From: Verrucomicrobiota bacterium
Lineage (GTDB): Bacteria > Verrucomicrobiota > Verrucomicrobiia > Opitutales > Opitutaceae
NCBI GenBank assembly: GCA_048498955.1
Contig: JBEHWZ010000015.1
Coordinates: 23,437 to 87,436, forward strand
Length of the DNA stretch: 64,000 bases
Direction of reading: 5' to 3'
Numbering within the stretch: position 1 is the stretch's first letter; each line of letters begins with the position of its first letter. The notes under the pieces were generated by a model. That model did no database searches. It was not told the origin of the DNA and saw nothing but the letters and a program-made list of their open reading frames with translations. The translations under genes were made by a program, and so were the position numbers. This document shows positions 10,874 through 60,901 of this stretch, piece after piece.

Positions 10874-11070
10874 CATTGTTCACCGGTCATCGCTCAATAG
10901 TCATTGATCGTTTCTGACTGATTTTTCGTTCCGTCATCCTGAGCCGTGCGAAGGATCCAAACGAAAGAGGACGTGGCAGCGTGTTCGGTTGGATCCTTCG
11001 CACGGCTCAGGATGACAATCCTTAGGATCGAAATTGCCAATGAACGGTGAACAATGAACGACGAAAAATT
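10874..11070. repeat. Inverted 7-bp-period array pair (CATTGTT/AATGAAC family)
   Basis: Left CATTGTT CACCGGT CATCGCT CAATAGT CATTGAT; right AATGAAC GGTGAAC AATGAAC GACGAAA. Confidence 0.75.
10933..11016. repeat. REP-like palindrome with perfect 28-bp arms
   Basis: gtcatcctgagccgtgcgaaggatccaa (10933-10960) and its exact reverse complement (10989-11016). Confidence 0.9.
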
Positions 11071-11082
11071 GTTCCCGATCGT

Positions 11083-12945
11083 TCACCGCGCCAGCTGCGC
11101 GAATACGTTCTCGAGCTGTCGCGTGAATCCCACTGCATCGCACAGCGGACTCTTGCGCATGCGCTCGCGGAGCGTGGCGCGCAGGGCGGCGCGGCGGGCG
11201 GGATCCAGCGTGGCTTCGCGGGCGATGCGGAGATAATCCGCGGGCGTCTGGGCGATCCACTCGGGCAGGCCGACGTGGGTGAGCAGGCTGGCGCCGACGC
11301 GGGCGGCGTGGACGCGGCCGGCGAGAGTCACGACCGGCACGCCCATCCAGAGCGCTTCACAGGTGGTGGTGGTGCCGTTGTAGGGGAAGGGATCGAGGGC
11401 AATGTCCACGCCGTGGTATAAACTTAAGTGGTCGGCGACGGAGAGCGCGGCGGCATTGCACGTCACGCGCTCAGCGGTGACTCCGGCCGCAGCGAAAGCG
11501 GCGTGTACTCTTGCGATGACTGCAGGTTCGTTCAGGCCGCGCGACTTCAGGAGCAGGCGCGAGGCGGGCACGGAGGCGAGCAGTTCGGCCCACAGTTGCA
11601 GGACCGCTGGCGTGACCTTGGCGAAATTGTTGAAACAACCGAACGTCACGGCGCCCGGTTCCGCGATCGGACGGACATTGACGGTCGGTGCGGCGGAGTC
11701 GGGTTGGTAGACGGAAAAATTGGCGGGAAGCCGGACGAGTTTCTCGGAGTGCCAGGCTTCGGTCGCGCCTTCGGGATCGCTGATCGCATCCGTCAGGCGG
11801 TAGTCGATCGCGGTGAGTCCGGTCGTGTTCGGGTAGCCGATCCAGGTGGCCTGCACCGAGGCGGGCCGGCGGGCCATCACAAGGAGACGGTGGCCTGCGG
11901 TGTGACCGGCGAGATCGACGAGCAGATCGAGCTGGTCCTGGCGGATGAGATCGGCCGCGGTGGCGTCGTTGAGCCGGGCGATGTCGCGCCAGTGCTCGAC
12001 CAGGCTACGCAGGCGGTCGGTGACGCGATCCGGTTCGCGGACGCTGGCGTAACCGAACACCTCGATGCGCGTTTTGTCATGCGCCGCGAGCACCGGCTCG
12101 ATGAAATAGGCGACCGCGTGGTGATTGAAATCGGGCGAGAGGTAGCCCACGCGCAGGCGGCGTCCGGCCGTCGCTTGCTGCGCCGGCGTCCGGGCGGGAG
12201 CAAGCTTCGCGGCGTGGAGTTCGTTCCAGCGCCGGTGCTCGGCGAACACGTCGGCCGGGTTGGTGTCCGGCAGAAAGTTCAGCGCGAAGAGCAGGTTGCT
12301 ATGCGTCTCCGGCGTGGGCTGGGCCGCGAGGGCCGCGCGGTAGTGGGCGACAGCCTCCGCGAGCAGTCCTTCGGTTTTGCAGAGTCGGCCGAGATTGTCG
12401 TGGGCCGCCGCATAGCCGGGGCGCAGCCGCAGGGCTTCCTGAAACGCGGCGCGCGCGGCGGCGCCTTGCCCGGCGGTGGCCAGCGCGTGGCCGAGAATGT
12501 TGTGCGCTTCGGGGCGTGCTGGCTCCAGCGCGATGGCGCGCTGGAAAGCGGCGATGGCGGAAGCGGTCTCTCCGGCTTCGAGGGAGGCGACGCCGAGATT
12601 CAGCCAGACCGGCGCATTCGCGGGTGCGAGCTCCGCGGCGAGGCGCAGTGCGGCGACGGCTTCGGCGTAGCGGCCGAGTGACTTCAGTACGTTGCCCGCC
12701 TGGTGATGCGCTTCCGCCAGCTTGGGATCGAGGGCGATGGCTTGCTGAAAAGCGGCGAGAGCGGCGTCCGGACGATTCGCGCCGCGCAGCGCGAGGCCGT
12801 GCAATTGGTGGACCGGCGCGGCCGCCGCGTTGGCCGGCACGCGGGCGAGAATCTGTTCGATCAGCGGCACCGCGTCCGCCGGCCGGCCGGCCCGCAAGTG
12901 GGCGAGAGCCTGGGCGTGGAGGGAAGCGGGGGATTGGTCACTCAT
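11083..12945 (-). CDS. TPR-repeat O-GlcNAc transferase-like protein (GT41/SPINDLY type)
   Basis: N-terminal TPRs; LRVGYLSPDFNHHAV, DLAGHT, TWIGYPNTTG, FGCFNNFAK, DPFPYNGTTTTCEALWMGVPVVT. Confidence 0.92.
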   Translation of the reverse strand: MSDQSPASLHAQALAHLRAGRPADAVPLIEQILARVPANAAAAPVHQLHGLALRGANRPDAALAAFQQAIALDPKLAEAHHQAGNVLKSLGRYAEAVAALRLAAELAPANAPVWLNLGVASLEAGETASAIAAFQRAIALEPARPEAHNILGHALATAGQGAAARAAFQEALRLRPGYAAAHDNLGRLCKTEGLLAEAVAHYRAALAAQPTPETHSNLLFALNFLPDTNPADVFAEHRRWNELHAAKLAPARTPAQQATAGRRLRVGYLSPDFNHHAVAYFIEPVLAAHDKTRIEVFGYASVREPDRVTDRLRSLVEHWRDIARLNDATAADLIRQDQLDLLVDLAGHTAGHRLLVMARRPASVQATWIGYPNTTGLTAIDYRLTDAISDPEGATEAWHSEKLVRLPANFSVYQPDSAAPTVNVRPIAEPGAVTFGCFNNFAKVTPAVLQLWAELLASVPASRLLLKSRGLNEPAVIARVHAAFAAAGVTAERVTCNAAALSVADHLSLYHGVDIALDPFPYNGTTTTCEALWMGVPVVTLAGRVHAARVGASLLTHVGLPEWIAQTPADYLRIAREATLDPARRAALRATLRERMRKSPLCDAVGFTRQLENVFAQLAR

Positions 12946-12990
12946 TGTTGATCGATGCCCATAGGCTATGTCGGGCTGAACTGCCTACGG

Positions 12991-13090
12991 CAATTTTTCA
13001 TTGTTCATCGTTCAATGTTCATTGGCTATTTCGAGCCGGAAGAGTGGTTCGAAATGATCAATGAACATTGAGCAATGAACGCTGAACAAT
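12991..13090. repeat. Inverted 7-bp-period array pair (CATTGTT/AATGAAC family)
   Basis: Left CATTGTT CATCGTT CAATGTT CATTGGC; right AATGATC AATGAAC ATTGAGC AATGAAC GCTGAAC. Confidence 0.85.
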
Positions 13091-13107
13091 CCTTCGGGGA
13101 TAGACGC

Positions 13108-13137
13108 AAAAAGCCTCCGACGGGGGGCCGGAGGCTT
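13108..13137 (-). terminator. Intrinsic terminator downstream of flagellins
   Basis: Stem aagcctccg/cggaggctt followed on the minus strand by a T-run. Confidence 0.75.
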
Positions 13138-19042: not shown

Positions 19043-19138
19043 GCGCGCAACGCGCGGATTTGTCCTGTTCCAGCCTGCTGGCTGGCCGGGATCCGTCCGA
19101 CGTTCTTGGGCGCCGTTGCGCCCAAAACGACGGCGGAA

Positions 19139-19240
19139 GATCTCAGATTTGAGATTTCAGAGGTTTCGGGCCTGTTTGCATAGGAGCATTGGCGCTGGCC
19201 GTTGGTTCGACCTGAAATCTCAAATTTCAAATCTGAGATC
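19139..19240. repeat. Inverted 7-bp-period array pair (AGATTT/AAATCT family)
   Basis: CAGATTT GAGATTT CAGAGGT ... GAAATCT CAAATTT CAAATCT GAGATC; outer 14 bp perfectly inverted. Confidence 0.85.
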
Positions 19241-21403: not shown

Positions 21404-21421
21404 CGGCCCGCCGACGGGCCG

Positions 21422-21458
21422 GAACGTCGAACGTTCAACTTCGAACGTTCAACGTTCA
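21422..21458. repeat. 7-bp-period array (GAACGTT family), single arm
   Basis: GAACGTC GAACGTT CAACTTC GAACGTT CAACGTT. Confidence 0.8.
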
Positions 21459-21594
21459 CGGCGAAGGCTTTGTCAGGATTGCGTAACTTCGCCTTAAGGT
21501 GCTGTTTATTGGGACGTTGAGTGTGGTGGATTGAGGGTTGGCAGGCCGCTCGTGGTTCACGGCGGCCCTGGGCAGAATTCCTCAAAAATGTGCG

Positions 21595-23383: not shown

Positions 23384-23447
23384 ACGATTTCAAATTTCAG
23401 ATCTGAGATTTGAGATCGAAGGCAGGGATCCGAAATCTCAAATTCCC
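23384..23447. repeat. 7-bp-period array pair (AGATTT family)
   Basis: CAAATTT CAGATCT GAGATTT GAGATCG ... GAAATCT CAAATTC. Confidence 0.75.
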
Positions 23448-39540: not shown

Positions 39541-39542
39541 CG
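39522..39542. repeat. Short 7-bp-period array
   Basis: CCTAACT CATAACT CCTAACG. Confidence 0.5.
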
Positions 39543-39562
39543 GATAACCGCGTTCCGCGCCC

Positions 39563-40141: not shown

Positions 40142-40145
40142 CCGT

Positions 40146-40269: not shown

Positions 40270-40283
40270 TGCGGAGGTGCCGC

Positions 40284-42666: not shown

Positions 42667-42737
42667 TCATTTCACTCCCCCCGTAACCGGCGTGCCACGG
42701 CTGGCACAATGCCGCGCTCCAAGGATGGACGTTAAAC

Positions 42738-44243: not shown

Positions 44244-44250
44244 AATTACC

Positions 44251-44718: not shown

Positions 44719-44739
44719 AACTTAACCCACTGCTCCTCC

Positions 44740-45597: not shown

Positions 45598-45607
45598 GCC
45601 TTAAACC

Positions 45608-46240
45608 ATGTCCGCCAAACCCGACGCCAAAGAAGCTCCCGCCGCCCCGGAAAAAGCCGGCACGGCTCCGGCGGAAGCCGCGGCTGCCCCCAAGAAAGCT
45701 TCGCCGATCGCGGCGATCCTTCCGCTGGTGGCTGCCATAGTCATCGCGCCGGCCGCGAGCTGGGCTGTCGCCCAGTTCGTGTTGCTGCCCAAACTCCAAG
45801 CCAAGCTCGCCGCCGCACCGGCCGAGGGTGGCGAACCCGCCCATGCTTCCGCCGAAAAGGAAAAGCCCGCCAAGAAGGAAGGCGGGCACGGCGAAAAGAA
45901 GAAGGGCGGCAAGGAAGGCGAGGGTGGTGGCGGCAGTGAGGACACCTACGAATTCACCAACGTCGTCGTTAACCTCTCCGGCACGATGGGCACGCGTTAC
46001 CTCAAGACCAGCTTCGTGGTCACGGGCGCCAAGCCCGACGTGATCAAGGAAGCCTTCGAGGGCAACAAGGCCCGTCTCACCGATGTCACGCTCGGCGTGC
46101 TCTCGTCCCTCAGTCTCTCCGACCTCGAGGAACCCGGCGCGAAGAACGTCCTGCGCGAGAAGCTCGTCTCGGCCTACAACCAGGCCTTGGGCAGCCGCGT
46201 GGCCGACCAGGTGTACTTCTCCGACTTCGTGGTGCAGTAA
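45608..46240 (+). CDS. fliL: Basal body-associated protein FliL
   Basis: Single TM; VVVNLSG...RYLK; VYFSDFVVQ C-terminus. Confidence 0.92.
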   Translation: MSAKPDAKEAPAAPEKAGTAPAEAAAAPKKASPIAAILPLVAAIVIAPAASWAVAQFVLLPKLQAKLAAAPAEGGEPAHASAEKEKPAKKEGGHGEKKKGGKEGEGGGGSEDTYEFTNVVVNLSGTMGTRYLKTSFVVTGAKPDVIKEAFEGNKARLTDVTLGVLSSLSLSDLEEPGAKNVLREKLVSAYNQALGSRVADQVYFSDFVVQ

Positions 46241-46255
46241 CCGCGCAGCGATTCC

Positions 46256-46314
46256 ACACGAAGAAGCCAAGAAACCAAGCCAACCCAATCCTTCGCTGCT
46301 TAGCTGCTTCGTGT
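46256..46314. repeat. Inverted 8-bp-period array pair
   Basis: ACACGAAG AAGCCAAG AAACCAAG ... CTTCGCTG CTTAGCTG CTTCGTGT. Confidence 0.7.
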
Positions 46315-46330
46315 TTTTCCTTTCCTGACC

Positions 46331-47401
46331 ATGGCCGACGACGCGTCAAAATCAGCCCCGACCGACTTTCTCGATCAATCCGAGATCGACAAGCTGCTCG
46401 CGCAGGGCGGCGGCGGTGACGGTGCCGCGAAGAAGACGCTGATTCGCGCCGACGGCACGCGCACCTCCAGCACGGAGCCGATCAAGGTCGAGGCCTACGA
46501 TTTTCGTAATCCCGCGTTCCTGTCCGAGGTCGAGCTCCGCCGCCTCCGCCTGGTGCACGAGGATTTCATCCGTTACCTGAGCGCACGCCTCTCGCTGTTT
46601 CTCCGCATGGAGTTCGGCCTGAAGATGGCGAAGCTCACGACGGTCAACTATTCCAAGTTCTGCGAGTCGCTGCCGAGCCCGACGCACATCTGCCTGTTCA
46701 AGGCCGAGCCGCTGTCGGGTGTCAGCGTCATCGACCTCAACCCGCGCCTCGCGCTCACCATCGCCGACCGCCTCCTCGGCGGCCGCGGCCATTCGGTGAA
46801 GACCGAGCGCTACCTGACCGAGATCGAGATCGCGCTGCTCGACGACGTGATCCACATGATCCTCGAGGAGTGGTGCCACCAGTGGAAGAGCGAGCAGGAG
46901 CTTACGCCCCTGATCGTCGGCCACGAGAACAGCGGCCGTTTCCTCCAGACCGCGCCCAAGGATGCCGTCATTCTCGCCATGACGCTCGAAGCCAGCTTCG
47001 GCGACTGCTCCGAGCAGATCCAGATTGGCGTGCCCTATTACACCATCGAACCGCTGGTCCGCCGCATGCAGGCCCGCCGCGCGAAGGACGCCAACATCAC
47101 GACCGCCGTCGCGAAGAAGGCCGAGTGGCAGCAGGCCTACGCCACCATCTCCATGCCGGTGCGCGCGGAGTGGGACACCTTCGAGGTTTCCCTGCGCGAA
47201 ATCACCAATCTCTGCGTGGGCGACGTGATCGAGATGCCCGCCGACCAATTGCGCCAGACCAACCTGCTGCTGAACGGCACGCCGAAATTCGTCGGCACCG
47301 TGGGCCTCGACAGCGAGCACATCGCAGTGCAGCTCACCGCCAAACTCCCGCCCGCCTCGGTGGGCCTAAACTCCGTTTACCATGGAAGAAAAAACTCTTG
47401 A
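46331..47401 (+). CDS. fliM: Motor switch protein FliM
   Basis: FLDQSEIDKLL (CheY-binding peptide), YDFRNP, CheC-like core, C-terminal SPOA. Confidence 0.95.
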   Translation: MADDASKSAPTDFLDQSEIDKLLAQGGGGDGAAKKTLIRADGTRTSSTEPIKVEAYDFRNPAFLSEVELRRLRLVHEDFIRYLSARLSLFLRMEFGLKMAKLTTVNYSKFCESLPSPTHICLFKAEPLSGVSVIDLNPRLALTIADRLLGGRGHSVKTERYLTEIEIALLDDVIHMILEEWCHQWKSEQELTPLIVGHENSGRFLQTAPKDAVILAMTLEASFGDCSEQIQIGVPYYTIEPLVRRMQARRAKDANITTAVAKKAEWQQAYATISMPVRAEWDTFEVSLREITNLCVGDVIEMPADQLRQTNLLLNGTPKFVGTVGLDSEHIAVQLTAKLPPASVGLNSVYHGRKNS

Positions 47402-47633
47402 TATCGTCCTCGACGTTAAGGTCAAAGTGACCGTGCAGCTCGGCTCGTGCCTGCTGCCGATGCGCGATGTCCTCGAACTCTCGCCCGGCTCCGTCGTGCA
47501 GCTGAACCAGCAGGCCAGCGATCCGGTCGGCCTCTACGTCAACGACAAGCTCGTCGCCTATGGTGAAGTCGTCGTGGTCGAGGACCACTTCGGCATCAAG
47601 ATCACCGAACTCGTCGGCAGCAATCCCCAGTGA
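47382..47633 (+). CDS. fliN: Motor switch protein FliN (83 aa, SPOA only)
   Basis: LDIVLDVKVKVTVQLG...AYGEVVVVEDHFGIKITEL. Confidence 0.95.
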   Translation: MEEKTLDIVLDVKVKVTVQLGSCLLPMRDVLELSPGSVVQLNQQASDPVGLYVNDKLVAYGEVVVVEDHFGIKITELVGSNPQ

Positions 47634-47643
47634 GGTTCCTGAC

Positions 47644-48063
47644 ATGGATGTCGCACAAAACTTTTCGGCCCGCTTCCGGGCGGGCCTCCTGTTCCTCGGT
47701 CTCCTCGCCGCCGCGCCGCTGTTCGCGCAGCCCAAGGAAGATCCCGTAATTTATCCCCGCGGCACGCCCGGGGCTGCGGCGGCCGCCCAGGCGGCTCCCG
47801 CGGGTTCGAATGCCTCCCTGATCCTGGCCGGTGTGCTCCTCGCGGGCGCCGGCGGCTGGTGGCTGTGGCTCAAGCGCCGGGACGGCGGTCGGGGCCTGGC
47901 CGGCAAGGCCCACCTGCTGAACATCGCGGAAACCCGCTCGCTCGGTTCGCGCCAGTACCTCGTCGTGGCCGACTACGACGGCAAAAAATTTCTCCTGGGC
48001 GTCTGCCCGGGCAGCATCGAAATGCTCACGCCGCTCGACGGCGAAAAGGCGGAGAAGTCATGA
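47644..48063 (+). CDS. fliO: Flagellar biosynthesis protein FliO
   Basis: TM segment then IAETRSLGSRQYLVVADYDGKKFLLGV. Confidence 0.85.
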   Translation: MDVAQNFSARFRAGLLFLGLLAAAPLFAQPKEDPVIYPRGTPGAAAAAQAAPAGSNASLILAGVLLAGAGGWWLWLKRRDGGRGLAGKAHLLNIAETRSLGSRQYLVVADYDGKKFLLGVCPGSIEMLTPLDGEKAEKS

Positions 48064-48947
48064 GCCGCTGGCTTTTCCTTTCCGGTTTCTGGCCTCGTGT
48101 CGCGGTGATTACCGTGCTGCTGGTGCTCGGCCTCTACGCCACGCCGGCTTTTGCTCAGGACGCCGCTGCTGCGCCGGCGCTCCAGCCCACGCAGGGCATC
48201 ATCCAGCCTTCGGCGAATCCGGCTCCGAACGCCGCTCCCGCCGCGATCGCCCCTACGCCTGTGCCGGCGTCGCGCACGCCGCTCCGCCTGAACATCGGGC
48301 TCGAGGGTGCCGATCGTCCGGGCGACCTCAGTGTCGCCGTGCAGCTCGTGCTGCTGATGACGCTCCTTTCGGTGGCGCCTTCGCTGGTGCTGCTGATGAC
48401 CAGTTTCACGCGCATCGTGATCGTGCTCGGTTTCGTGCGCACCGCGCTCGGCGTGCCGAGCGCGCCGTCCAACCAGATCATCGTCGGCCTCTCGCTGTTC
48501 CTGACCTTCTTCATCATGGGTCCGACTTTCGATCGCATCAACACGGAGGCCCTGCGGCCCTACCTCGACGGCAAGATGCAGTCGGCGGACGCGCTCGACA
48601 AGGCGACCGGCCCGCTGCGCGATTTCATGCTCAAGCAGACCCGCACGCGTAACCTCGAGTACTTCCTGCAGCTCGGGGGCTATGGCCCGACGGCGGTCAA
48701 GGACCTGCCGATGCGCGTCGTGATTCCCTCCTTCGTGCTGAGCGAACTGCAGTCCGCCTTCCAGATGGGCTTCCTGCTCTTCCTGCCTTTCCTCGTCATC
48801 GATTTCCTCGTGTCCGCAGTGCTGATGTCACTCGGCATGATGATGATGCCGCCCAACGTCGTCTCGCTGCCCTTCAAGCTGCTCCTGTTCGTCCTGGTGG
48901 ACGGCTGGCACCTGATCGTGCAGTCGCTGGTGCAAAGCTTCAGCTAG
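48060..48947 (+). CDS. fliP: Export gate protein FliP
   Basis: MTSFTRIVIVL, PSNQIIVGLSLFLT, AFQMGF, PFKLLLFVLVDGW. Confidence 0.97.
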   Translation: MSRWLFLSGFWPRVAVITVLLVLGLYATPAFAQDAAAAPALQPTQGIIQPSANPAPNAAPAAIAPTPVPASRTPLRLNIGLEGADRPGDLSVAVQLVLLMTLLSVAPSLVLLMTSFTRIVIVLGFVRTALGVPSAPSNQIIVGLSLFLTFFIMGPTFDRINTEALRPYLDGKMQSADALDKATGPLRDFMLKQTRTRNLEYFLQLGGYGPTAVKDLPMRVVIPSFVLSELQSAFQMGFLLFLPFLVIDFLVSAVLMSLGMMMMPPNVVSLPFKLLLFVLVDGWHLIVQSLVQSFS

Positions 48948-48954
48948 CGCTGAA

Positions 48955-49053
48955 GCGGCAAGAGGAAAGGGGGAAGCGGAAAGCGTCCAACCACTCTCAA
49001 GCCATCCGAACCTTACGGTCTCACACTTACCTCCTACCGCTTACCTCTTCCCG
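48955..49053. repeat. Inverted 7-bp-period array pair
   Basis: GCGGCAA GAGGAAA GGGGGAA GCGGAAA ... CTTACCT CCTACCG CTTACCT CTTCCCG. Confidence 0.7.
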
Positions 49054-49068
49054 CGCTTCGCGCCCGCC

Positions 49069-49338
49069 ATGAATCCCGAAATCGCCATCGATCTCTTCAA
49101 AACCACGGTGATGTTTGCGCTCTATACGGTCGCGCCGTTTCTCATCGTGCTGATGGTGGTGGGACTCGTCACCAGCCTGCTGCAGTCGGTGACGTCGCTG
49201 CAGGAGCCGACTCTGACTTTCGCGCCCAAGCTGATCGCGCTCTCCGCGCTGGCGCTGCTGCTCACGCCGTGGCTGTTGCGCACGCTGAGCGAGTTTACGA
49301 TCTCGATCATCAACCGCATGCCGGGTTTGGCGCACTAA
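49069..49338 (+). CDS. fliQ: Export gate protein FliQ
   Basis: [17 protein letters not shown]. Confidence 0.96.
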
Positions 49339-49425
49339 GGAGCAAAGAGCACGGAGCATAGGGCCAAGAGCCCAGACCCGATCCGTCTTTTCCTACTCTT
49401 TGCTCCAAGCTCTTAGCTCTTTGCT
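49339..49425. repeat. Inverted 7-bp-period array pair (GGAGC family)
   Basis: GGAGCAA AGAGCAC GGAGCAT AGGGCCA AGAGCCC ... CTACTCT TTGCTCC AAGCTCT TAGCTCT. Confidence 0.8.
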
Positions 49426-49435
49426 TTCGCCCCCC

Positions 49436-50188
49436 ATGACGATCGGCTACTTCTACACCTTCCTGATGGTTTTCCTGCGCGGGGTGGGGATCGTTTTCCT
49501 GCTGCCGGCGCTGGGTGGTGACCGAACGATTCCGCCGATGATCAAGGTCGCGATCTCGCTGTGCATTGCGATCCTCGTGACCGGGCTGGTGCCGGAGGGG
49601 CACATCCCCGGCGATCTGGCCAGTCTCGGTTTCGCCATGGCGGGCGAGGTGCTGCTCGGCCTCGCGATGGGCTTCATGGTGAAGATGATTTTTTCCGCCG
49701 TGGAAATGGCGGGCCGCATGATCGCCTCGGAAATCGGTCTCGCCGGCAGCCCGGGTTTTGGCGCGCCCGAGATGGCATCGGAACCACTGGCGGCGTTCGT
49801 CATGTCGCTGGCCGTGCTCCTGTTTTTCCTCTTTGGCGCGCACCTGACCGTGCTGACGGCGTTCGCGCGTAGCTTCGATTTCGCCGCCCCGGGCATGCCG
49901 GTGCTGGGCCACGGGGCGGGGGAGCAGTTCATCAATGCCACCAGCCACGTGATCGAGCTCGGCCTGCGCATGGCGGCGCCGTTCATCGCGCTGAATTTCA
50001 TGGTCACGCTGGCGTTCTCGGTGCTCGGTCGCGCCGTATCGCGCATGAATGTCTTCGTGCTCAGCTTTTCCGTCCGCGCGCTCCTCGGCTTCGGCCTCCT
50101 GGCCAGCGGTGGCGCCCTGATCGCCCGCTACATGTACGCCGAGTTCAGCGACCTGCCGACGCAGATGCTGATGCTGGTTAGCAAGTGA
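49436..50188 (+). CDS. fliR: Export gate protein FliR
   Basis: [34 protein letters not shown]. Confidence 0.95.
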
Positions 50189-50221
50189 TCGGACTTGTGG
50201 CCGCTGGCGTGGGTTTTGGGA

Positions 50222-50262
50222 TATAGGTCCTATACGACCTATAGGACTTATAGGACCTATGG
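50222..50262. repeat. 9-bp-period array
   Basis: TATAGGTCC TATACGACC TATAGGACT TATAGGACC TATGG. Confidence 0.85.
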
Positions 50263-50440
50263 TTTGATGGCGGCCGGCTCCCGGGAATTAGTCCTGACTT
50301 TCGCTATCGTGCGCTACCTCACGGCAAATATTGCCGGAAAAAACGGGCGCTTTTTTTGGCGTGAAATAATCGCGAGCGCGTTCGGATACGAAACTTTCTA
50401 AATGCTGATAATCAGTGATTAATGCGACGTACGGAATCCT

Positions 50441-50455
50441 TGGCATCGGCGTTGC
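50441..50455 (+). promoter_or_regulatory. sigma54 promoter of flhB operon
   Basis: TGGCAT-N5-TTGC. Confidence 0.8.
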
Positions 50456-50473
50456 TATTTATCGGGCACAACA

Positions 50474-51577
50474 ATGTCCGATACCGACCAAGACCAAAAA
50501 ACCGAGAAGCCCACAGGCAAGCGCCTGAGTGAGGCTGCGGACAAGGGTCAGTTCGCGAAGAGCCCGGAGCTGTCGGTTTTGTTCTCCCTGGCGGCGGCGC
50601 TCGGGGTGCTCGGTTTCACCGCCTCGTCCACCGCGCGCAGCGTGGCGGAATATTCGGTCGGCGTGTTCAGCAATTTCGCCCACAGCCCGGTCGAGCTCTC
50701 GACGGTCCCGGGCTACCTCGGCGATGTGATGCAGGTCGTCGCCGGCGGCCTGCTGCCGGTGCTGCTCGCCTGCGCGATCGCCGCGATGCTCGTCGGCGGC
50801 ATCCAGAGCGGCTTCCACCTTTCGACCAAGGCGCTCGCGTTCAAGCTCGAGGGCCTGAACCCGGTCGCCGGTTTCCAGCGCATCTGGTCCAAGAACACCG
50901 CGATCAAGGCCGGCATCGACCTGCTCAAGCTCGTCGCCATCGGCTTCTCGCTCTACCTCGGCGCCCGCACGCTGATGATGGATCCGCTCTTCAGCGCGCC
51001 GGTCGAGGCCCGCTACCTCGGCACGTTCATCAACAACGCCGCCGTCACGTTTTTCAGCCGCCTGCTGTTCTCCCTCGGGATCATCGCCGCCCTCAGCTAC
51101 GCCTGGGAAAAGTACAAGACGGGCCAGGAGCTCATGATGACCCGCCAGGAAGTGAAGGATGAGGCGAAGAACACGGAAGGTGACCAGCAGGTGAAGGGCG
51201 CGATGCGCCGCATGGCCCGCCGCCTCCTGCAGAAGCAGATGCTCGCCTCGGTCGCCACGGCCGACGTCGTCATCACCAACCCGACCCACTACGCCATCGT
51301 CCTCAAGTACGAGCGCGGCCTCGACAAGGCCCCGGTCATCCTCGCCAAGGGCGAGAATCGTTTTGCCCAGCGCCTCAAGGCCCTCGCGGCCCAGCACGGC
51401 GTCCCGATGGTCGAGAACAAGCCCGTCGCCCGCATGCTCTTCGCGCTCGGCGAAGTGGGCGAGGGGATCCCGCAGGAACTCTACCAGGCCGTCGCCGAGA
51501 TCCTGGCCGTGGTCTACCGCACGCACCGCTTCTACTTCCACCAGCTAAAGACCCGCCGCCTCGAGGCCGCGGCCTGA
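50474..51577 (+). CDS. flhB: Export switch protein FlhB
   Basis: KTEKPTGKRL, ITNPTHYA autocleavage motif, VENKPVAR. Confidence 0.97.
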   Translation: MSDTDQDQKTEKPTGKRLSEAADKGQFAKSPELSVLFSLAAALGVLGFTASSTARSVAEYSVGVFSNFAHSPVELSTVPGYLGDVMQVVAGGLLPVLLACAIAAMLVGGIQSGFHLSTKALAFKLEGLNPVAGFQRIWSKNTAIKAGIDLLKLVAIGFSLYLGARTLMMDPLFSAPVEARYLGTFINNAAVTFFSRLLFSLGIIAALSYAWEKYKTGQELMMTRQEVKDEAKNTEGDQQVKGAMRRMARRLLQKQMLASVATADVVITNPTHYAIVLKYERGLDKAPVILAKGENRFAQRLKALAAQHGVPMVENKPVARMLFALGEVGEGIPQELYQAVAEILAVVYRTHRFYFHQLKTRRLEAAA

Positions 51578-51612
51578 TGAATCTCAAATTTCAAATCTGA
51601 GATTTTAAATTT
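51578..51612. repeat. 7-bp-period array (AGATTT family)
   Basis: TGAATCT CAAATTT CAAATCT GAGATTT TAAATTT; 24 nt identical to 19216-19239. Confidence 0.85.
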
Positions 51613-51621
51613 CTCCCCCAC

Positions 51622-53790
51622 ATGCCCGTTTCCAGTTCCAACTCCATCACCCGCCTCCTGGCCCGCGCCGACCTGCTCTTCGCGATCGGCCTGTTCGGCA
51701 CGGTGCTGCTGCTGGTGCTGCCGGTGCCGCCGTTCCTGATCGACCTGATGCTCGCGCTGAACATCGGGCTCTCGCTCCTGGTGCTGCTCGCGATCGTCTA
51801 CATCAAGGATCCGCCGGAGTTCTCCGCGTTCCCGACGATGCTGCTGGCGCTGACCCTCTTCCGCCTCGCGCTGAACATTTCCTCCACCCGCCAGATCCTC
51901 GCGCACGGCTACGCCGGCGAGATCATCGAGTCCTTCGGTCACTTCGTCATCCAGGGCAACTACATCGTCGGCGCCGTGGTGTTCATCATCCTCGTCTTGA
52001 TCAACTTTGTGGTCATCACGAAGGGCGCGGGCCGCATCGCTGAAGTCAGCGCGCGTTTCACCCTCGACGCTCTCCCCGGTAAGCAGATGGCGATCGATGC
52101 CGAACTCAACGCCGGCATCATCGACGAGCTCACCGCCACCACCCGCCGCCTCAAGGTCCAGAAGGAAGCGGATTTCTACGGTGCGATGGACGGTGCCTCG
52201 AAGTTCGTCCGCGGTGACGCGGTCGCCGGCATCCTGATCACGCTCGTCAACGTCGTCGGCGGTTTCGCCATCGGCGTGCTGCAGATGGACCTCACGCTCG
52301 CCGAGTCGCTGCAGAAGTTCACCCTCCTCTCGATCGGTGACGGTCTCGTCTCCCAGATCCCCGCGCTCATCATCTCCATCGGCGCCGGTCTCCTCGTCAC
52401 CCGCGCTTCCGACAACAACAACCTCGGCCAGCAGATCACCGGCCAGATCGTCCGCTACCCGCGCGCCATGAAGCTCGCGGCGGGCTGTATGGCGGTCTTC
52501 GGCCTCATGCCGGGCATGCCGATGATCCCGTTCCTGGGTCTCGCCGGCCTCATGGCTTTCATGGCCCGCACGTTCAAGGACACCGAGGGCGCCGATGCGC
52601 TCGCGACCGCGACGGCACCCGCCGCCGGCAAGCCGGGTGCGAAGGGCGCCCCTGCCGCTCCGGGAAAACCGGGCGAGGCCGCCCCGACCGGCTCCGTTTC
52701 CGCGCCGGCCACCGAGGACGTCCGCAAGCTCACGGAAGTCGACATCTTCTCGATCGAAATCGGCTACGGCCTGCTCCCGCTCGCCGAGGCCCGCTCGGGT
52801 GGCGACCTGCTCGCTCGCGTCACGGGTGTCCGCAAGACGCTCGCTCGCGAAAAGGGCCTCGTCGTCCCGCCGGTTTCCGTCCGCGACAATCTCGAACTCG
52901 AGGCCAACGACTACCGCTTCCTCCTTCGCGGCAAGGCCGTCGCTCGCGGCACCATTCTCCCGGGCCGCCTGCTCGCGATGAACGTCGCCGGCAGCACCAT
53001 CCGCCTCCGCGGCCAGCCGACGCGCGAGCCGGTCTTCAACCTCGACGCGACCTGGATCGACGAGGGCGAGCGCAAGACCGCCGAGATGAACAATTACACG
53101 GTCGTCGACCCGTCGTCGGTGCTCATCACGCACCTGTCCGAGACGCTCAAGGCCAACTCGCACCACCTGCTCGGCCGCCAGGATGTGCAGTCGCTCGTCG
53201 ACCACATCAAGGTCTCGCACGCCGCGCTCGTCGCCGAACTGCTGCCCGACCTCGTCAACCTTGGTGTCATCCAACGCGTCCTGCAGAACCTGCTCCGCGA
53301 GGGCGTCGCGATCCTCAATCTCCCGCTCATCCTCGAAGGCATCGCCGACTTCGCCTCGCTCTCGAAGAATCCGGACGACCTCAGCGAACTCGTCCGTCGC
53401 CGCCTCGGTCTGTATTTCGTCCCCGAGCTGGAAGCCCGCCCCGGCGTGCTGCGCAGCCTGACCCTCGATCCGCGCCTCGAGCAGTTCCTTGGCACCAAGG
53501 TGCACCGCTCGCCGACCGATGTCGGCCTGTCGCTCGACCCGGCCACCGGCCGCCACCTGATCGAGGAGCTCAACCGCCGCATCGCGCAGCTCACGAGCCA
53601 GGGCGCTCCCGCGGTGCTCACGGTCTCGACCGAGACCCGCCTGCCGATCAAGCGCTTCCTCGAACCCTCTTTCCCGCGTCTCACCGTCCTCGCGTTCCAG
53701 GAGCTCCCGACCTCGACCGAGATCGAAAACGCCGGCCTCGTGCCGCTCCCCGTCCACCTGCAGCAGCAGCCCGCCAAGGCCGCCGCCTAA
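51622..53790 (+). CDS. flhA: Export apparatus protein FlhA
   Basis: EVSARFTLDALPGKQMAIDA, FYGAMDGASKFVRGD, TIGD-like SIGDGL. Confidence 0.98.
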   Translation: MPVSSSNSITRLLARADLLFAIGLFGTVLLLVLPVPPFLIDLMLALNIGLSLLVLLAIVYIKDPPEFSAFPTMLLALTLFRLALNISSTRQILAHGYAGEIIESFGHFVIQGNYIVGAVVFIILVLINFVVITKGAGRIAEVSARFTLDALPGKQMAIDAELNAGIIDELTATTRRLKVQKEADFYGAMDGASKFVRGDAVAGILITLVNVVGGFAIGVLQMDLTLAESLQKFTLLSIGDGLVSQIPALIISIGAGLLVTRASDNNNLGQQITGQIVRYPRAMKLAAGCMAVFGLMPGMPMIPFLGLAGLMAFMARTFKDTEGADALATATAPAAGKPGAKGAPAAPGKPGEAAPTGSVSAPATEDVRKLTEVDIFSIEIGYGLLPLAEARSGGDLLARVTGVRKTLAREKGLVVPPVSVRDNLELEANDYRFLLRGKAVARGTILPGRLLAMNVAGSTIRLRGQPTREPVFNLDATWIDEGERKTAEMNNYTVVDPSSVLITHLSETLKANSHHLLGRQDVQSLVDHIKVSHAALVAELLPDLVNLGVIQRVLQNLLREGVAILNLPLILEGIADFASLSKNPDDLSELVRRRLGLYFVPELEARPGVLRSLTLDPRLEQFLGTKVHRSPTDVGLSLDPATGRHLIEELNRRIAQLTSQGAPAVLTVSTETRLPIKRFLEPSFPRLTVLAFQELPTSTEIENAGLVPLPVHLQQQPAKAAA

Positions 53791-53800
53791 CTAATCTCCC

Positions 53801-54907
53801 ATGTCCTCTCTTCCTGCCAACGCTCCCGGCACCTGCTACAAGTTCATCGTCTCCGACGCCAACGAGGCCGCCTCGGTCATCCGCGACCGCCTCGGCGAAA
53901 ACGCCCGCGTCCTCTCCGTCCGCACGATCGAGCCGACCGGCCTGCGCAGCCTCTGGGCTTCGCCCAAGATCGAGGTGCTGGCGACCGTGACGCCGATCGC
54001 CCCGGTGGGAGCGAGCTTGCTCGCGACCAGCAGCGACGACGCCAGTCCGGTGCCGAGCCAGCACGCCTCGACCAACACCCGCATCGATGCCCGCAGCGCG
54101 TTCCGCCAGCCGATCGCGCGCGATCTCACCGCCTTGCTCCGCCGCTCGGGTTTCTCGGATTCGATCCTCGCTCGCCTGCAAAATTCCTCCGACTGGGCCG
54201 CGCTCCAGGCCATGCCGCTGCACCGCGCGCTGGTCGAGACGAGCCGCACGCTCCAGCGCATCGCCGCCACGCGCAAGCCGGTCGCCCCGCTGACCCGCGC
54301 CGCCTTCATCGGTCTCGCCGGTTCCGGCCGCACCACCGCCCTTTGCAAATGGCTCGCCTCCGAAGTGTCACGCCGCGCCCGCGTGGGCCACGTGATCGCC
54401 GCCGAGTTCGACCAGCCGCTGTCCCGCGGCCCGCTCCCGATTTTCTGCGAGGCCCTCGGCGTGCCGCTGGCGCACTATCCGGCCTCGACCCAGCCCGCCG
54501 CGCCCGGCGCCTTCGTCTATTTCGACCTGCCGCCGCTGTCGCTGCGCGACCCGAACGCCAACCAGCCGCTGGCCTCGTTCCTCGACCGCGAGGAAATCGC
54601 CCAGCGCGTGCTCGTGCTGAACGCCGCGTACGGTCCGGACGCCCTCCGCGCCGGCTATGCCCGCGGCCGCGAGTTGCAGGCGACGCATGTGGTTTTCACG
54701 CATCTCGACGAGCGCGTCCAGTGGGGCGGCCTCTGGGATCTCCTGCTCGACGGCGGCCTGGAGCCGCTCTTCCTTACCACCGGCCCGTCGCTCACGGGCG
54801 AGTGCGAGGAGGACGTGTACGACGCGCTCGCGCGCCGCACGCTGCCGGTCGCGGCCAACCCCGATCACACCCTGGCGGACGACGAGTCCGAGGAGGACGC
54901 CGCATGA
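53801..54907 (+). CDS. flhF: FlhF-like SRP-family GTPase (degenerate motifs)
   Basis: N-terminal EAASVIRDRLGENARVLSVR; GLAGSGRTT; THLDE; FLTTG; follows flhA. Confidence 0.75.
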   Translation: MSSLPANAPGTCYKFIVSDANEAASVIRDRLGENARVLSVRTIEPTGLRSLWASPKIEVLATVTPIAPVGASLLATSSDDASPVPSQHASTNTRIDARSAFRQPIARDLTALLRRSGFSDSILARLQNSSDWAALQAMPLHRALVETSRTLQRIAATRKPVAPLTRAAFIGLAGSGRTTALCKWLASEVSRRARVGHVIAAEFDQPLSRGPLPIFCEALGVPLAHYPASTQPAAPGAFVYFDLPPLSLRDPNANQPLASFLDREEIAQRVLVLNAAYGPDALRAGYARGRELQATHVVFTHLDERVQWGGLWDLLLDGGLEPLFLTTGPSLTGECEEDVYDALARRTLPVAANPDHTLADDESEEDAA

Positions 54908-57004: not shown

Positions 57005-57119
57005 CAAGTAACAAGTATGAAGTACCAAGTAACAAGTACGGCCGCCGCTACCCGCGATCCTCGTGTGATTGCCGGTGGATGGTCCTGTTACTTGTTACCT
57101 GATACTTGCTACTTCATCT
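57005..57119. repeat. Inverted 7-bp-period array pair (CAAGTA family)
   Basis: CAAGTAA CAAGTAT GAAGTAC CAAGTAA CAAGTAC ... CTGTTAC TTGTTAC CTGATAC TTGCTAC TTCATCT. Confidence 0.88.
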
Positions 57120-58286: not shown

Positions 58287-58307
58287 GGCATCGCCGGTGC
58301 GATGCAC

Positions 58308-58400
58308 ATTTTTCACCGTTCAAGGTTCATTAGTCATTGGTCATTTCGATCCGACGGTTCGAAATGACAGATGAAAGATGAGCAATGAACGCTGAACAAT
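58308..58400. repeat. Inverted 7-bp-period array pair (CATTGTT/AATGAAC family)
   Basis: CACCGTT CAAGGTT CATTAGT CATTGGT CATTTCG ... AATGACA GATGAAA GATGAGC AATGAAC GCTGAAC; 22 nt identical to 13069-13090. Confidence 0.88.
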
Positions 58401-58420
58401 TGCCCGGAGTTTGATCAGAG

Positions 58421-58441
58421 GCCGGTCTCCCGACCGGCCTT
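58421..58441. repeat. 21-bp palindromic direct repeat, copy 1
   Basis: gccggtctcccgaccggcctt. Confidence 0.85.
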
Positions 58442-58497
58442 CTGGCTTTGCGGAATTGATGAAGGACAATTCGCGTGATTGGCTCCGCGAAATAAAA

Positions 58498-59070
58498 ATG
58501 AAGTCGCGTACCGTCTTGATCGCGTTGCTCGGAATTTCCCTGGTGGTGGCCGAAACCCGGGGCGAATCACCGCGAAAAGCCGGTCCCTTGAGCAGCGCGC
58601 TGCTCGAAGAACTGGTTCGGAACGACCATGAGGTGGGTGACGATGTGGCAGGCCGGTGCGTATGGCCCGATGGGAATTCGATTCCTTATCGCTTTGACTT
58701 CACCAGCAAGGGAAACGGCCGGCTGCAGCTCGGCGGCCAGATGATCCGGGTCTATGATTACCACGAGGATGGCAGCCGTTATGAGGATGGGTTCCTGCAG
58801 ATCGACCTGATCAGCAAGCGCGGCATGTCGCTCCTGGTGTTCACCGGCATGGCGCAATGGAGTGATGAGAAGGGTGGAAGGGTGATTCATCGTGAACCGG
58901 TATCCCTGATCTTTGCCTTGGATAAGAAGCAGCACCTCGAACTCGTTTTTGCCAACCAGGGGGCCGACAGGTTCGACGCTTGGGAGCACAAGGGCGATCG
59001 CTCACGGGAGGACTGGATCGAGTTTTTCCAGAAAGAGGACGAACGGAAGCATTCCCTGGATCGCCGCTGA
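58498..59070 (+). CDS. Hypothetical secreted protein (190 aa)
   Basis: MKSRTVLIALLGISLVVAE signal-peptide-like start; less biased codons than neighbours. Confidence 0.65.
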   Translation: MKSRTVLIALLGISLVVAETRGESPRKAGPLSSALLEELVRNDHEVGDDVAGRCVWPDGNSIPYRFDFTSKGNGRLQLGGQMIRVYDYHEDGSRYEDGFLQIDLISKRGMSLLVFTGMAQWSDEKGGRVIHREPVSLIFALDKKQHLELVFANQGADRFDAWEHKGDRSREDWIEFFQKEDERKHSLDRR

Positions 59071-59077
59071 ACGCTGA

Positions 59078-59098
59078 GCCGGTCTCCCGACCGGCCTT
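59078..59098. repeat. 21-bp palindromic direct repeat, copy 2
   Basis: gccggtctcccgaccggcctt, identical to 58421-58441. Confidence 0.85.
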
Positions 59099-59198
59099 TT
59101 TGTTTTTGCGCTCCCGGGCGTTGTCGCGCCTGATGACGGCGCGGGCCGCCAATCCTCGTCCAACCTCGTTGGGGCACTCTTCCTGCGGGAGAAATGAC

Positions 59199-59618
59199 AT
59201 GCGCAAAGTAGAAATCATCATCACCGGCTTCTTTGCCGTGGCGGTTGGCTTTGACATTTGGGCGCGCCTGGCGGTGAAGCGCCGGGCCGGACGGCAGCGG
59301 GCGCAGGCCCAGGCGCTGGCCGGAGCTTTTCCAGCGGAATACCGCGCGACCGTGGGCTACGCCGCTTGGATCCTGGCGACCGCGCTCGATATCGATCCCG
59401 CGAGCCTGCAGCCCAAGACGCGTTTCCTCGAGGACCTGAAGATGGACGATCTTGAGTACAAGGAGGTGTCGCTGGTCCTGAAGGCAGACGGCCTCGAACT
59501 CGCGCCCGAAGAAGTCATGCAGGCCGGCGCTTTCGAGGGGTTTGTGCACATCCTGACCGGCCGGGTGCCGCCGTCGTTCTTCGCCCAATGGGAGGAGATA
59601 AGGGAAAAGTCGTCTTGA
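59199..59618 (+). CDS. Hypothetical membrane-anchored protein with ACP-like domain
   Basis: N-terminal TM; PKTRFLEDLKMDDLEYKEVSLVL resembles the ACP motif. Confidence 0.55.
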   Translation: MRKVEIIITGFFAVAVGFDIWARLAVKRRAGRQRAQAQALAGAFPAEYRATVGYAAWILATALDIDPASLQPKTRFLEDLKMDDLEYKEVSLVLKADGLELAPEEVMQAGAFEGFVHILTGRVPPSFFAQWEEIREKSS

Positions 59619-59944
59619 AGCGCTGGGCGGAAAGTCCCCTGGCCTGGGTGGTCGCCAACTGATCGCGAAAAAGGCTTCGGTATGGATGGCCGAGCTCCTG
59701 CGAGGCCAACGCACGCCGGCGCAACCCAAGGCCTCGCGGGAGCTCGGCCCTCCACTTTTGTGGCCGGGCGGCCATGGATTTGGGCGACTGGATATCGGCC
59801 CATGGCAGGCCCGGTTTAACGCTAATCGGGCGACTAGGTAAGATTTGCCGCTGACGGTTTCGCTCCCGGGCGGGCAGGGTAGTGCCAAACTGAAAAACTT
59901 TTAAGTATCTATCCTTAGGCACTTAAGGTGTAAACGAAGTCCGT

Positions 59945-59959
59945 TGGCACCGGCATTGC
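59945..59959 (+). promoter_or_regulatory. sigma54 promoter of flgF operon
   Basis: TGGCAC-N5-TTGC, exact consensus. Confidence 0.88.
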
Positions 59960-59974
59960 TCATAGGGCCCCAAC

Positions 59975-60724
59975 ATGAATATCGGTCTCTACCAAAGTGC
60001 AGCTTCGATGGCGGCGCTGGAGCGTTGGCAGGATAGTGTTTCCCAAAACATTAGCTCCGGCCAGACGTCCGGCTACCGCAAGCGCACGATTGAGTTCAGC
60101 ACCGAGACCGCGGGCGAGATTCGTCCGGACGGCAAGGCCAAGCTCGGCGTCGATGGCGGCATTCCCGCGATTTTCCCGAAAACCTCGGCCGGCATTAACT
60201 TCAATTCCGGTGAGACGATGCCCACGCGCCGCGAGCTCGACTTCGCGCTGCAGGGCGAGGGTTTCTTCGAGGTCCAGATGAAGGACGGCTCCATGGCGTA
60301 CTCGCGCAGCGGCGAGTTCCGCATCCGTCCGGACCGCACGCTCGTCAATTCCGCCGGCCTCGAAGTCATGAGCACGAGCGGCAGCCCGATTGTGCTGCTC
60401 CCCGGCCAGGGCCAGGTGACGGTCAATCCGGATGGCACCATCGTGCAGGGCACCACGGCGCTCGGTAAACTCTCGATCCAGAAATTTTCCAACGAGGCCG
60501 CGCTCATCCCGACGGCGGGCGGCATGTTCATCGCCGGCGCCGGCGCCGGCAAATCCGCCGTCGACGAACCCGAGGTGATGCAGGGCTACCTCGAGCAGAG
60601 CAACGTCCAGCCCCTCCGCGAAATGGTCGACCTCGTCATCATCTCCCGCGCCTACGAGGCGAACCAGAAGATGATCACGACCATCGACTCGCAGATGCAG
60701 AAGGCCCTCGAGGCCCTCGGCTAA
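59975..60724 (+). CDS. flgF: Basal-body rod protein FlgF
   Basis: MNIGLYQSAASM, LDFALQGEGFF, YSRSGEF, YLEQSNV...RAYEANQK; precedes flgG. Confidence 0.9.
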   Translation: MNIGLYQSAASMAALERWQDSVSQNISSGQTSGYRKRTIEFSTETAGEIRPDGKAKLGVDGGIPAIFPKTSAGINFNSGETMPTRRELDFALQGEGFFEVQMKDGSMAYSRSGEFRIRPDRTLVNSAGLEVMSTSGSPIVLLPGQGQVTVNPDGTIVQGTTALGKLSIQKFSNEAALIPTAGGMFIAGAGAGKSAVDEPEVMQGYLEQSNVQPLREMVDLVIISRAYEANQKMITTIDSQMQKALEALG

Positions 60725-60812
60725 AGCCGCGCCATGAATTCCCCATATAGACAACCGCAATCACGACTGCTTGGCCGCGCCCGGTATGGGGCCGGGCCGG
60801 CTCCAATTTCAA

Positions 60813-60901
60813 AGAGCATGGAGCAGGGAGCCGGGAGCTTGGAGCCGATCCAAGCCCATGGCGTTTCCTGCTCCGTGCTCTTCGCTCTTCGCTCCTCGCT
60901 C
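60813..60901. repeat. Inverted 7-bp-period array pair (GGAGC family)
   Basis: AGAGCAT GGAGCAG GGAGCCG GGAGCTT GGAGCCG ... CCTGCTC CGTGCTC TTCGCTC TTCGCTC CTCGCTC. Confidence 0.85.

Follow-up and report, generated by a model that had tools for sequence, protein, structure and literature searches.

Inverted heptamer arrays in the flagellar gene spacers of an Opitutaceae genome are probably gene-less mobile relatives of four-helix-bundle gene cassettes

Introduction

Why are the narrow gaps between flagellar genes filled with hairpins built from tandem 7-bp repeats? The question is raised by a 64,000-nucleotide stretch of a Verrucomicrobiota genome of the family Opitutaceae (assembly GCA_048498955.1, 4.59 Mb in 26 contigs, designated G000), which spans positions 23437-87436 of contig JBEHWZ010000015.1 (G000:C15:23437-87436) and is referred to hereafter as the window. 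Pfam matches identify a flagellar cluster in the window with two flagellins, flgB, flgC, fliE, fliF, fliG, fliH, fliI, fliJ, flgD, flgE, fliL-fliR, flhB, flhA, flhF, fliA, motA, motB, flgF and flgG. A preliminary description, made from the letters of this DNA alone, had interpreted the arrays in its spacers either as a non-autonomous mobile hairpin family that targets gene boundaries or as sliding-register RNA hairpins that tune RNA processing and subunit stoichiometry. Our analysis indicates that the arrays are probably gene-less, non-autonomous palindromic mobile elements related to cassettes that carry four-helix-bundle genes. Most likely they represent DNA that is mobile or has proliferated recently, and not a control system dedicated to the flagellum.

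The short tandemly repeated repetitive (STRR) heptamers of cyanobacteria are one known class of heptamer repeat. Intergenic GGGAATC heptamers, 70-75 per genome and in inverted pairs, have been described in Xanthomonas together with repeats of Nostoc (Rehm et al. 2015, PMC4692102), and heptanucleotide elements are listed in the genome paper of Geobacter metallireducens (PMC2700814). The intervening sequence (IVS) in the 23S rRNA of Coxiella combines tandem heptamers (GACAGAT), a 28-bp stem and an S23p gene, and its mobility has been discussed (Warrier et al. 2016, PMC4990558).

Results

Periodic-arm hairpins in the window

As shown in Table 1, arrays were found at about 16 intergenic loci, all with a period of 7 bp except for one of 8 bp and one of 9 bp, and most consisted of two inverted arms. 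The arrays listed by Tandem Repeats Finder (TRF) lay at, or within a few bases of, the positions given in the preliminary description, whose distances to the adjoining stop and start codons were correct; its total of 17 varies with the way in which arms and degenerate runs are tallied. The two-arm design was borne out by a spacer-by-spacer inverted-repeat scan, which detected hairpins with periodic arms at 12 loci (z 3.6-21.6 relative to shuffles) and assigned one arm only to two arrays, in the flgC-fliE and fliF-fliG spacers. Spacers were delimited with gene calls that we made from codon usage (3,629 genes, 90% coding). At least eight unit types were present in the window, where at least six had been claimed. 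The hairpin loops were 0-47 nt long, or about 110 nt when they held a nested palindrome, and none contained an open reading frame (ORF). Predicted RNA folding was far better than that of shuffles in five of six tested spacers (z -4.0 to -7.8) and weak in the fliP-fliQ spacer (z -0.5).

Genome-wide excess and placement

An autocorrelation scan of the kind suggested in the preliminary description put lag 7 far above its neighbours across the source genome. At one threshold there were 190 arrays at lag 7, compared to 33 at lag 8 and 34 at lag 10, and 7, 4 and 3 at lags 5, 11 and 13, respectively. The genome carried 361 lag-7 arrays, 73% of them intergenic although intergenic DNA makes up 10% of the genome. 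A reverse-complement partner lay within 250 bp of 44-55% of the arrays, compared to 1-13% in reversed, complemented and direct controls, and the same inverted pairing was seen for periods 8, 9 and 10. A strict catalogue listed 186 periodic-arm pairs (median loop 40 nt), of which 153 were gene-less and intergenic. Because this catalogue recovers only three of the window loci, the true number of elements is several-fold higher. The arrays comprised 88 distinct canonical heptamers, about a dozen of which made up roughly half of the arrays.

Genome-wide, the elements began a median of 13 nt past a stop codon and ended a median of 22 nt ahead of a start codon. These distances are short because the elements fill tight spacers, of which a median of 34 nt is left over. 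Targeting of gene boundaries did not hold up as a rule: element rates were similar in co-directional (4.2%), divergent (5.5%) and convergent (3.1%) spacers, and neither a target-site duplication nor a target motif was found.

Turnover between close relatives

A search with FlhA gave relatives in Oleiharenicola, Lacunisphaera and Opitutaceae (Verrucomicrobiota), and orthologous spacers, a comparison that the preliminary description had also suggested, were examined in six genomes with FliI identities of at least 88%: the source, its sister genome G001 (FliI 96% identical to the source), the complete genome G009, and G007, G018 and G008. Filled and empty sites were found among them. The flgC-fliE spacer measured 146 bp in the source, 151 in G001, 271 in G007 and 147 in G008, where the hairpin is orthologous, and 26 in G009 and 23 in G018, where it is missing. 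The fliH-fliI spacer measured 142 bp in the source, 34 in G009, 136 in G001, 844 in G007, 124 in G018 and 106 in G008. Between an unannotated 501-aa ORF (42738-44243) and flgD the spacer was 7 bp in the source and -4 in both G018 and G008, compared to 116 in G009 and 114 in G007, the two genomes with an AAGTAAG element upstream of flgD; the flhA-flhF spacer was 10 bp in the source and 106 in G009. No tree of the six genomes allows the presence/absence splits at flgC-fliE and flgD each to have arisen only once.

Some orthologous spacers held unrelated hairpins in different species. At the flhB-flhA site G009 had an unrelated AAGTAAG-family hairpin, and in the short fliF-fliG spacer the relatives had other heptamer arrays; the motA-motB hairpin had a degraded orthologue in G009. 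Empty orthologous sites were 7-34 nt long and contained no seed. The possibility that the loop is a pre-existing target bracketed by added arms was ruled out by empty sites of 7-10 nt without loop sequence.

Copy numbers differed as sharply as the spacers. The TTCATTG-family pattern had 42 matches in the source genome and none in G001, G007, G009 or G008. An AAGTAAG-AATTAAG family had 147 matches in G009 at up to three mismatches (about 90 for the reversed-pattern control), with members in three different flagellar spacers; at up to two mismatches it had 57 matches in G001, 23 in G007, 4 in the source, 1 in G008 and 0 in G018. The families are lineage-specific, and their spread, most likely in bursts, varies from one sister species to the next.

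The 844-bp fliH-fliI spacer of G007 (L003, G007:C37) consisted of two copies of a composite repeat of about 400 bp with arrays of 12-13-nt period (GGTCTCATGTAGG) and GTAG-tagged hairpins resembling repetitive extragenic palindromes (REPs).

Arm units shared with four-helix-bundle cassettes

The preliminary description had proposed that similar arrays flank four-helix-bundle (TIGR02436/PF05635) genes, and had noted correctly that the window contains no such gene; it has no GxxExxY gene either. The source genome had ten PF05635 matches, all outside the window, and six PF13366 matches (NCBIfam TIGR02436, TIGR04258 and TIGR04256). Inverted periodic arms enclosed no fewer than eight of the ten PF05635 genes, and the long-looped members of the catalogue held precisely these four-helix-bundle and GxxExxY genes. 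A genus sample of 30 loci per family was then scored with an arm-score cut-off of 14 (the best control reached 13). Arms were present around 32 of 37 four-helix-bundle genes, with a period of 7 in 26 cases, 9 in three and 6 in one, in agreement with that proposal. Around GxxExxY genes arms were likewise present (31 of 35), as had been suspected, although none had the period of 7: their units were 8-11 nt or irregular at about 10-11 nt, and their outer ends were conserved (TTAACC(A/G)C...GTGGTTAA). The period of the repeats thus follows the kind of cargo: arms of four-helix-bundle genes mostly have period 7, those of GxxExxY genes 8-11 and never 7. The fifteen 7-bp arrays of the window and its 9-bp TATAGGACC array are of the four-helix-bundle type.

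Units were shared as well as periods. The fliH-fliI arm unit (GAACRTC; GAACGTC) also frames a four-helix-bundle gene at G000:C20:1377-1661, the AGATTTC arrays match the AAATCTC unit of a cassette at C4:309503, and the 9-mer TATAGGACC frames a four-helix-bundle-plus-suffix (TIGR04258) gene at G000:C3:98929-99483, where it matches the cassette at C3:99223. One third of the intergenic 7-bp arrays (88 of 264) differed from some cassette unit by no more than one mismatch. For four of the six 7-bp cassettes of the source genome, the unit was common to 9-25 gene-less arrays, compared to 0-8 for reversed-unit controls. Each four-helix-bundle gene of the source had a different arm unit, and gene-less copies outnumbered gene-bearing ones by more than 10:1. 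In both G001 and G007 one four-helix-bundle gene, judged from coordinates, lies between AAGTAAG arms. Since their loops contain no PF05635/TIGR02436 gene, the window copies are gene-less relatives of the four-helix-bundle cassettes and not full members.

Several other cassettes deserve mention. Five GxxExxY cassettes (TIGR04256, PD-(D/E)XK) outside the window, at G000:C5:12324-12765, C3:182921-183364, C2:392894-393317, C9:158284-158735 and C3:71410-71754, had inverted arms of 8-11-nt units (CACGGAACA, CGCGAAGG, CACGAATGGA, CACAAAAAGT). Four syntenic cassettes (L158, L177, L165 and L168) encoded proteins only 51-53% identical, while their arm units, GTTGAAA / GTTGAGA, were one base apart; the four-helix-bundle gene would appear to evolve fast, or to be replaced, within a stable frame. 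Three more four-helix-bundle genes, at 137186, 166011 and 169747, lay among numerous long or nested heptamer arrays in a region of about 35 kb (G000:C2:136900-171700), possibly a nest of such elements. The four-helix-bundle gene at C3:365418-365690 had AAACGCC arms.

Arm anatomy of the best-sampled family

The TTCATTG family had at least 23 full copies in the source genome, each about 100 bp long, three of them in the window. The copies shared a fixed order of variant units and an inner TTTCGR/YCGAAA clamp around a variable loop of 10-35 nt. The TGAAC core positions were 84-100% conserved while the 2-nt linkers varied freely. Within-copy covariation of the arms was absent in this family, own arms pairing at 72.7% compared to 74.9 ± 1.2% for arms taken across copies. 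A comparison over eight families gave own-partner complementarity of 0.73 and cross-partner complementarity of 0.62 but is confounded by ascertainment and mixed clusters, and the single-family test was relied upon. Genome-wide, arms had a median of 4.1 units, and 84.5% of unit-to-unit mismatches sat in two of the seven columns (73% expected, p 5e-9). Arms thus composed of conserved 5-nt cores and variable 2-nt linkers, without within-copy covariation, hint at periodic protein binding; the core conservation, the lack of better own-arm pairing and the concentration of mismatches in two columns are matched more closely by a series of protein-binding words than by a stem maintained through compensatory change. 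The 5' arm was purine-rich in 124 of 150 elements and had more A than T in 123 of 149, a bias that holds on either strand because a palindrome has one and the same sequence on both. Base pairing may be of importance at certain loci, since the flgC-fliE orthologues of the source and G001 differ at three paired positions changed on both arms.

CAATGAA/TGAACAA heptamer arrays also occurred in unrelated low-GC metagenome contigs (L190:860-980, also L188, L189 and L191), for example paired in inverted orientation between nusG and rplK, or immediately past stop codons, so the unit is not confined to the source lineage. A non-periodic REP-like palindrome of about 83 bp (GTCATCCTGAGCCGTGCGAAGGATCC ... 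reverse complement) had 115 palindromic copies in the source genome, including the one nested in the first hairpin of the window, and was also present in flagellar spacers of relatives. At least nine copies, and about 30 by eye, lay inside or beside periodic-arm hairpins of several unit types, and the hairpin loops look like landing sites for it.

Two neighbourhoods of TTCATTG copies in the window differed in gene content from G009. A GT41/TPR glycosyltransferase gene of 620 aa (11083-12945, minus strand) had a TTCATTG-family hairpin on each side; in G009 the gene is not at this position and its neighbours are 274 bp apart. A 1.4-kb stretch within 58287-60007, which starts directly after the third TTCATTG copy, had two ORFs without a Pfam match (58459-59070 and 59199-59618) and a palindrome with 25-bp arms (59683-59754), and was not found between the same neighbours in G009.

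Table 1. Periodic arrays and hairpins of the window. Hairpin z, inverted-repeat scan relative to shuffles; fold z, RNA folding.
Position	Spacer	Element	TRF arrays	Hairpin z	Fold z	Remarks
10874-11075		TTCATTG/CAATGAA-family heptamer hairpin				Loop has nested REP-like palindrome with 28-bp arms, 10933-11016 (inner z 23)
12993-13090		TTCATTG-family element, ~100 bp	12993-13024; 13055-13090	16.6	-7.2	Arms of 4-5 heptamers, inner TTTCGA/TCGAAA clamp, short loop
19139-19240	convergent	AGATTTC/GAAATCT heptamer hairpin	19138-19161; 19215-19234	9.7		
21418-21462	convergent	GAACGTT heptamer palindrome, tight	21422-21458	3.6		
23385-23418		ATTTCAA/TTGAGAT heptamer palindrome, tight	23399-23417	5.7		Loop length zero
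36043-36170	flgC-fliE	GAGCCGA-type hairpin (36043-36132), then unpaired CTCCCAT array (36144-36170)	36117-36170	14.5	-7.8	CTCCCAT array has one arm only
38190-38220	fliF-fliG	GTCCTCC heptamer array	38190-38220			One arm only
40145-40269	fliH-fliI	GAACRTC/GAYGTTC hairpin	40146-40177; 40230-40269	21.6	-6.8	5-6 units per arm
46256-46314	fliL-fliM	8-bp-period hairpin (AAGAAACC / CTTAGCTG)	46261-46309 (period 8)	5.6		
48955-49054	fliP-fliQ	Degenerate GCGGNAA/CTTACCN heptamer arms	49026-49054	8.1	-0.5	Weakest member
49341-49425	fliQ-fliR	GGAGCAA/TTGCTCY heptamer hairpin	49337-49358; 49396-49425	8.9	-4.1	
50223-50260	fliR-flhB	9-bp TATAGGACC array	50222-50260 (period 9)			Self-complementary (TRF and inverted-repeat scan)
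51580-51613	flhB-flhA	AATTTCA/AGATTTT heptamer array	51580-51613			Folds on itself (TRF and inverted-repeat scan)
57005-57114	motA-motB	CAAGTAA/TTACTTG heptamer hairpin	57005-57038; 57086-57114	8.8	-5.9	
58308-58400		Third TTCATTG-family copy	58327-58400	11.3		
60812-60902	flgF-flgG	GGAGCAG/GCTCYTC heptamer arms	60814-60902	6.4		

Discussion

Our results favor the mobile hairpin family of the preliminary description: families with conserved arms are dispersed through the genome, their copy numbers range from zero to dozens among congeners, orthologous spacers are filled in one species and empty in another, and gene-bearing relatives share the arm units. A typical element is about 60-130 bp long, with arms of three to six tandem 7-nt units inverted around an unconserved loop, and there are many unit families; in each unit a conserved core (about 5 nt) is joined to a variable linker (about 2 nt). 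The same arm design, in the source genome often with the same unit, frames four-helix-bundle genes of the 23S-rRNA-intervening-sequence/Avd family (PF05635/TIGR02436), and a sister design with 8-11-nt units frames GxxExxY PD-(D/E)XK genes. Gene-less copies would be non-autonomous offspring or relatives of the gene-bearing cassettes. They may move as DNA, multiply within a lineage and persist only in spacers, where they are harmless, filling those of tight operons almost completely.

Several observations weigh against this interpretation. Target-site duplication was not above control, the direct repeats at the ends of the 153 gene-less elements having the same length distribution as those at shifted controls; a 6-bp AGCCCG repeat flanking the flgC-fliE hairpin was accordingly treated as chance. 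No transposase or other known mobility enzyme was linked to the elements, genes for REP-associated tyrosine transposases (RAYTs) not having been searched for, and no movement was observed. Loops of different TTCATTG copies were unrelated, the nested palindrome apart, which is unusual for MITEs (miniature inverted-repeat transposable elements) with otherwise similar copies. AAGTAAG hairpins number in the dozens in the complete genome G009, which has only two four-helix-bundle genes, neither of them so armed. This contradicts the idea of one same-armed four-helix-bundle "master" for each gene-less family, and a same-armed master gene is thus not required. Close four-helix-bundle cassettes were almost always syntenic across genomes, i.e. 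vertically inherited, and only two non-syntenic pairs exceeded 60% protein identity. Related proteins in differing contexts were for this reason uninformative about cassette movement, and movement of the gene-bearing copies was not demonstrated. The TGAAC-core arrays of unrelated contigs need not share an ancestor and could be the outcome of convergence towards a word that a protein binds.

In a different account the arrays are periodic protein-binding sites and a ring-shaped or oligomeric protein contacts one 5-nt core every 7 nt along each arm. The candidate binder is the four-helix-bundle protein, and the sites would serve regulation or the maintenance or copying of the element, which can coexist with mobility. 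The conserved cores and free linkers of the TTCATTG arms, their lack of own-arm covariation, the two-column mismatches, the number of units per arm, the different unit at each four-helix-bundle gene and the identical TGAAC-core arrays in unrelated bacteria all fit such a reading, as does the sole sequence match of the four-helix-bundle protein in the PDB, 2RLD (E 4e-14), an entry listed with five chains. Yet the abundant AAGTAAG family of G009 lacks a same-armed gene, protein similarity barely predicts unit similarity among non-syntenic four-helix-bundle pairs (Spearman -0.15), and a 7-bp spacing does not keep step with the turns of B-DNA, so that binding would need single strands or RNA; we regard this account, whose binding step is hypothetical, as unlikely. 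The arrays would instead be host-selected RNA hairpins if RNase III cleavage, 3'-end protection or translation uncoupling in polycistronic mRNAs set the ratios of flagellar subunits. The strong folding of the spacers and the three two-sided changes in the flgC-fliE hairpin are consistent with this, and the analogous 23S rRNA IVSs are cut by RNase III (PMC4990558). However, no sense-strand RNA signature was found. At 100 elements between co-directional genes, arm mismatches on the sense strand were G:U in 77 cases and A:C in 106, and loop orientation relative to transcription was also null (49 vs 46). Rates were similar in divergent and convergent spacers, within-copy covariation was absent from the largest family, and close relatives with the same operon had empty spacers or unrelated hairpins. 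Rfam gave no match in the window at gathering score. In a scan of 35000-54000 no terminator-like site coincided with an array, such sites were not more numerous than in shuffles, and T-tracts of the terminator type were not found at arrays. RNA tuning, the other proposal of the preliminary description, is thus quite unlikely. The hairpins, if transcribed, may incidentally affect mRNA processing, but they do not appear to be shaped for it.

Birth in place would need no movement at all: polymerase slippage would enlarge a 7-nt seed and intrastrand template switching would copy it across a quasi-palindrome. Heptamers are an over-represented class of long simple-sequence repeats in many bacteria, for which slippage has been proposed (PMC4692102), and both the unit numbers that differ between orthologues and the lack of a target duplication are as expected. 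The fixed order of variant units and the conserved inner clamps over at least 23 dispersed copies are not, nor are the handful of units that make most arrays, the copy numbers that run from zero to dozens between sister species and the seedless empty sites, and we consider birth in place very unlikely.

Gene-less mobile elements of the kind we favor have partial parallels in known systems. Like MITEs and REPINs, the hairpins are short, non-coding, palindromic, dispersed and intergenic, differ in copy number among relatives and have gene-bearing kin in the same genome; copy number and insertion sites are polymorphic between close relatives, as in MITEs. Unlike MITEs, they lack a target-site duplication and have internally periodic arms, unrelated loops and many coexisting families. 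The same-armed gene-bearing copies encode a four-helix-bundle protein without known catalytic activity, and G009 has no same-armed parent. Unlike REPs and REPINs, the arms are periodic, without a GTAG or CGTC tag and, within the limit given above, without a linked RAYT; GTAG-tagged REPs occur separately in spacers of the relatives. The Xanthomonas-type heptamers resemble our arrays in having tandem 7-nt units, about 90% of them intergenic and nearer the end of the upstream gene, often in convergent (inverted) pairs, and in varying between strains. The reports on Xanthomonas, Nostoc and Geobacter are concerned with a single unit or a small number of units in each genome and consider G-quadruplexes or regulator sites, with no link to a gene family, whereas the present elements comprise 88 or more canonical units and show lineage-specific bursts and a link to four-helix-bundle/GxxExxY cassettes. 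Nothing was found in the literature that ties such repeats to TIGR02436 or GxxExxY, the published accounts covering single-family heptamer repeats.

ORF-bearing 23S IVSs of Leptospira and Coxiella burnetii share with the present elements a long inverted-repeat stem around a loop and the possible presence of a PF05635 gene. The number of GACAGAT heptamers in the Coxiella IVS varies between strains, and present or past mobility of this IVS has been proposed (PMC4990558). In contrast to IVSs, the elements here lie between protein genes rather than in helix 25 or 45, the window copies are gene-less and many unit families coexist in a genome. The complete 23S gene of G009 has no insertion. The partial 23S gene of the source (G000:C15:1-1551, about model position 1349 to the end) lies at the contig edge, 22 kb upstream of the window, and is truncated before helices 25 and 45, where an IVS may be present.

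Avd of diversity-generating retroelements, a relative of the four-helix-bundle protein, is pentameric. The 7-nt period could be a protein ruler, with an oligomeric four-helix-bundle protein recognizing the four or five conserved 5-nt words that line each arm, GxxExxY nucleases recognizing the 8-11-nt words, and protein and array together a new, transposase-less means of copying or maintaining palindromic DNA. The idea is a speculative one and, in our judgement, unlikely; if true, it would explain both how 23S rRNA IVSs originated and why heptamer repeats, so far without an explanation, occur in many bacterial phyla.

To our knowledge, the heptamer repeats of cyanobacteria, Xanthomonas and Geobacter have been noted for decades without explanation, and we know of no role outside diversity-generating retroelements for the large PF05635 four-helix-bundle and GxxExxY families. 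The source genome ties these repeats and both protein families together. In annotation, such hairpins should not be read as operon-specific regulators. If the arrays are protein-binding rulers, they would offer a first testable function for four-helix-bundle and GxxExxY proteins, and should the elements move with no classical transposase, they would represent a new mechanism of mobility.

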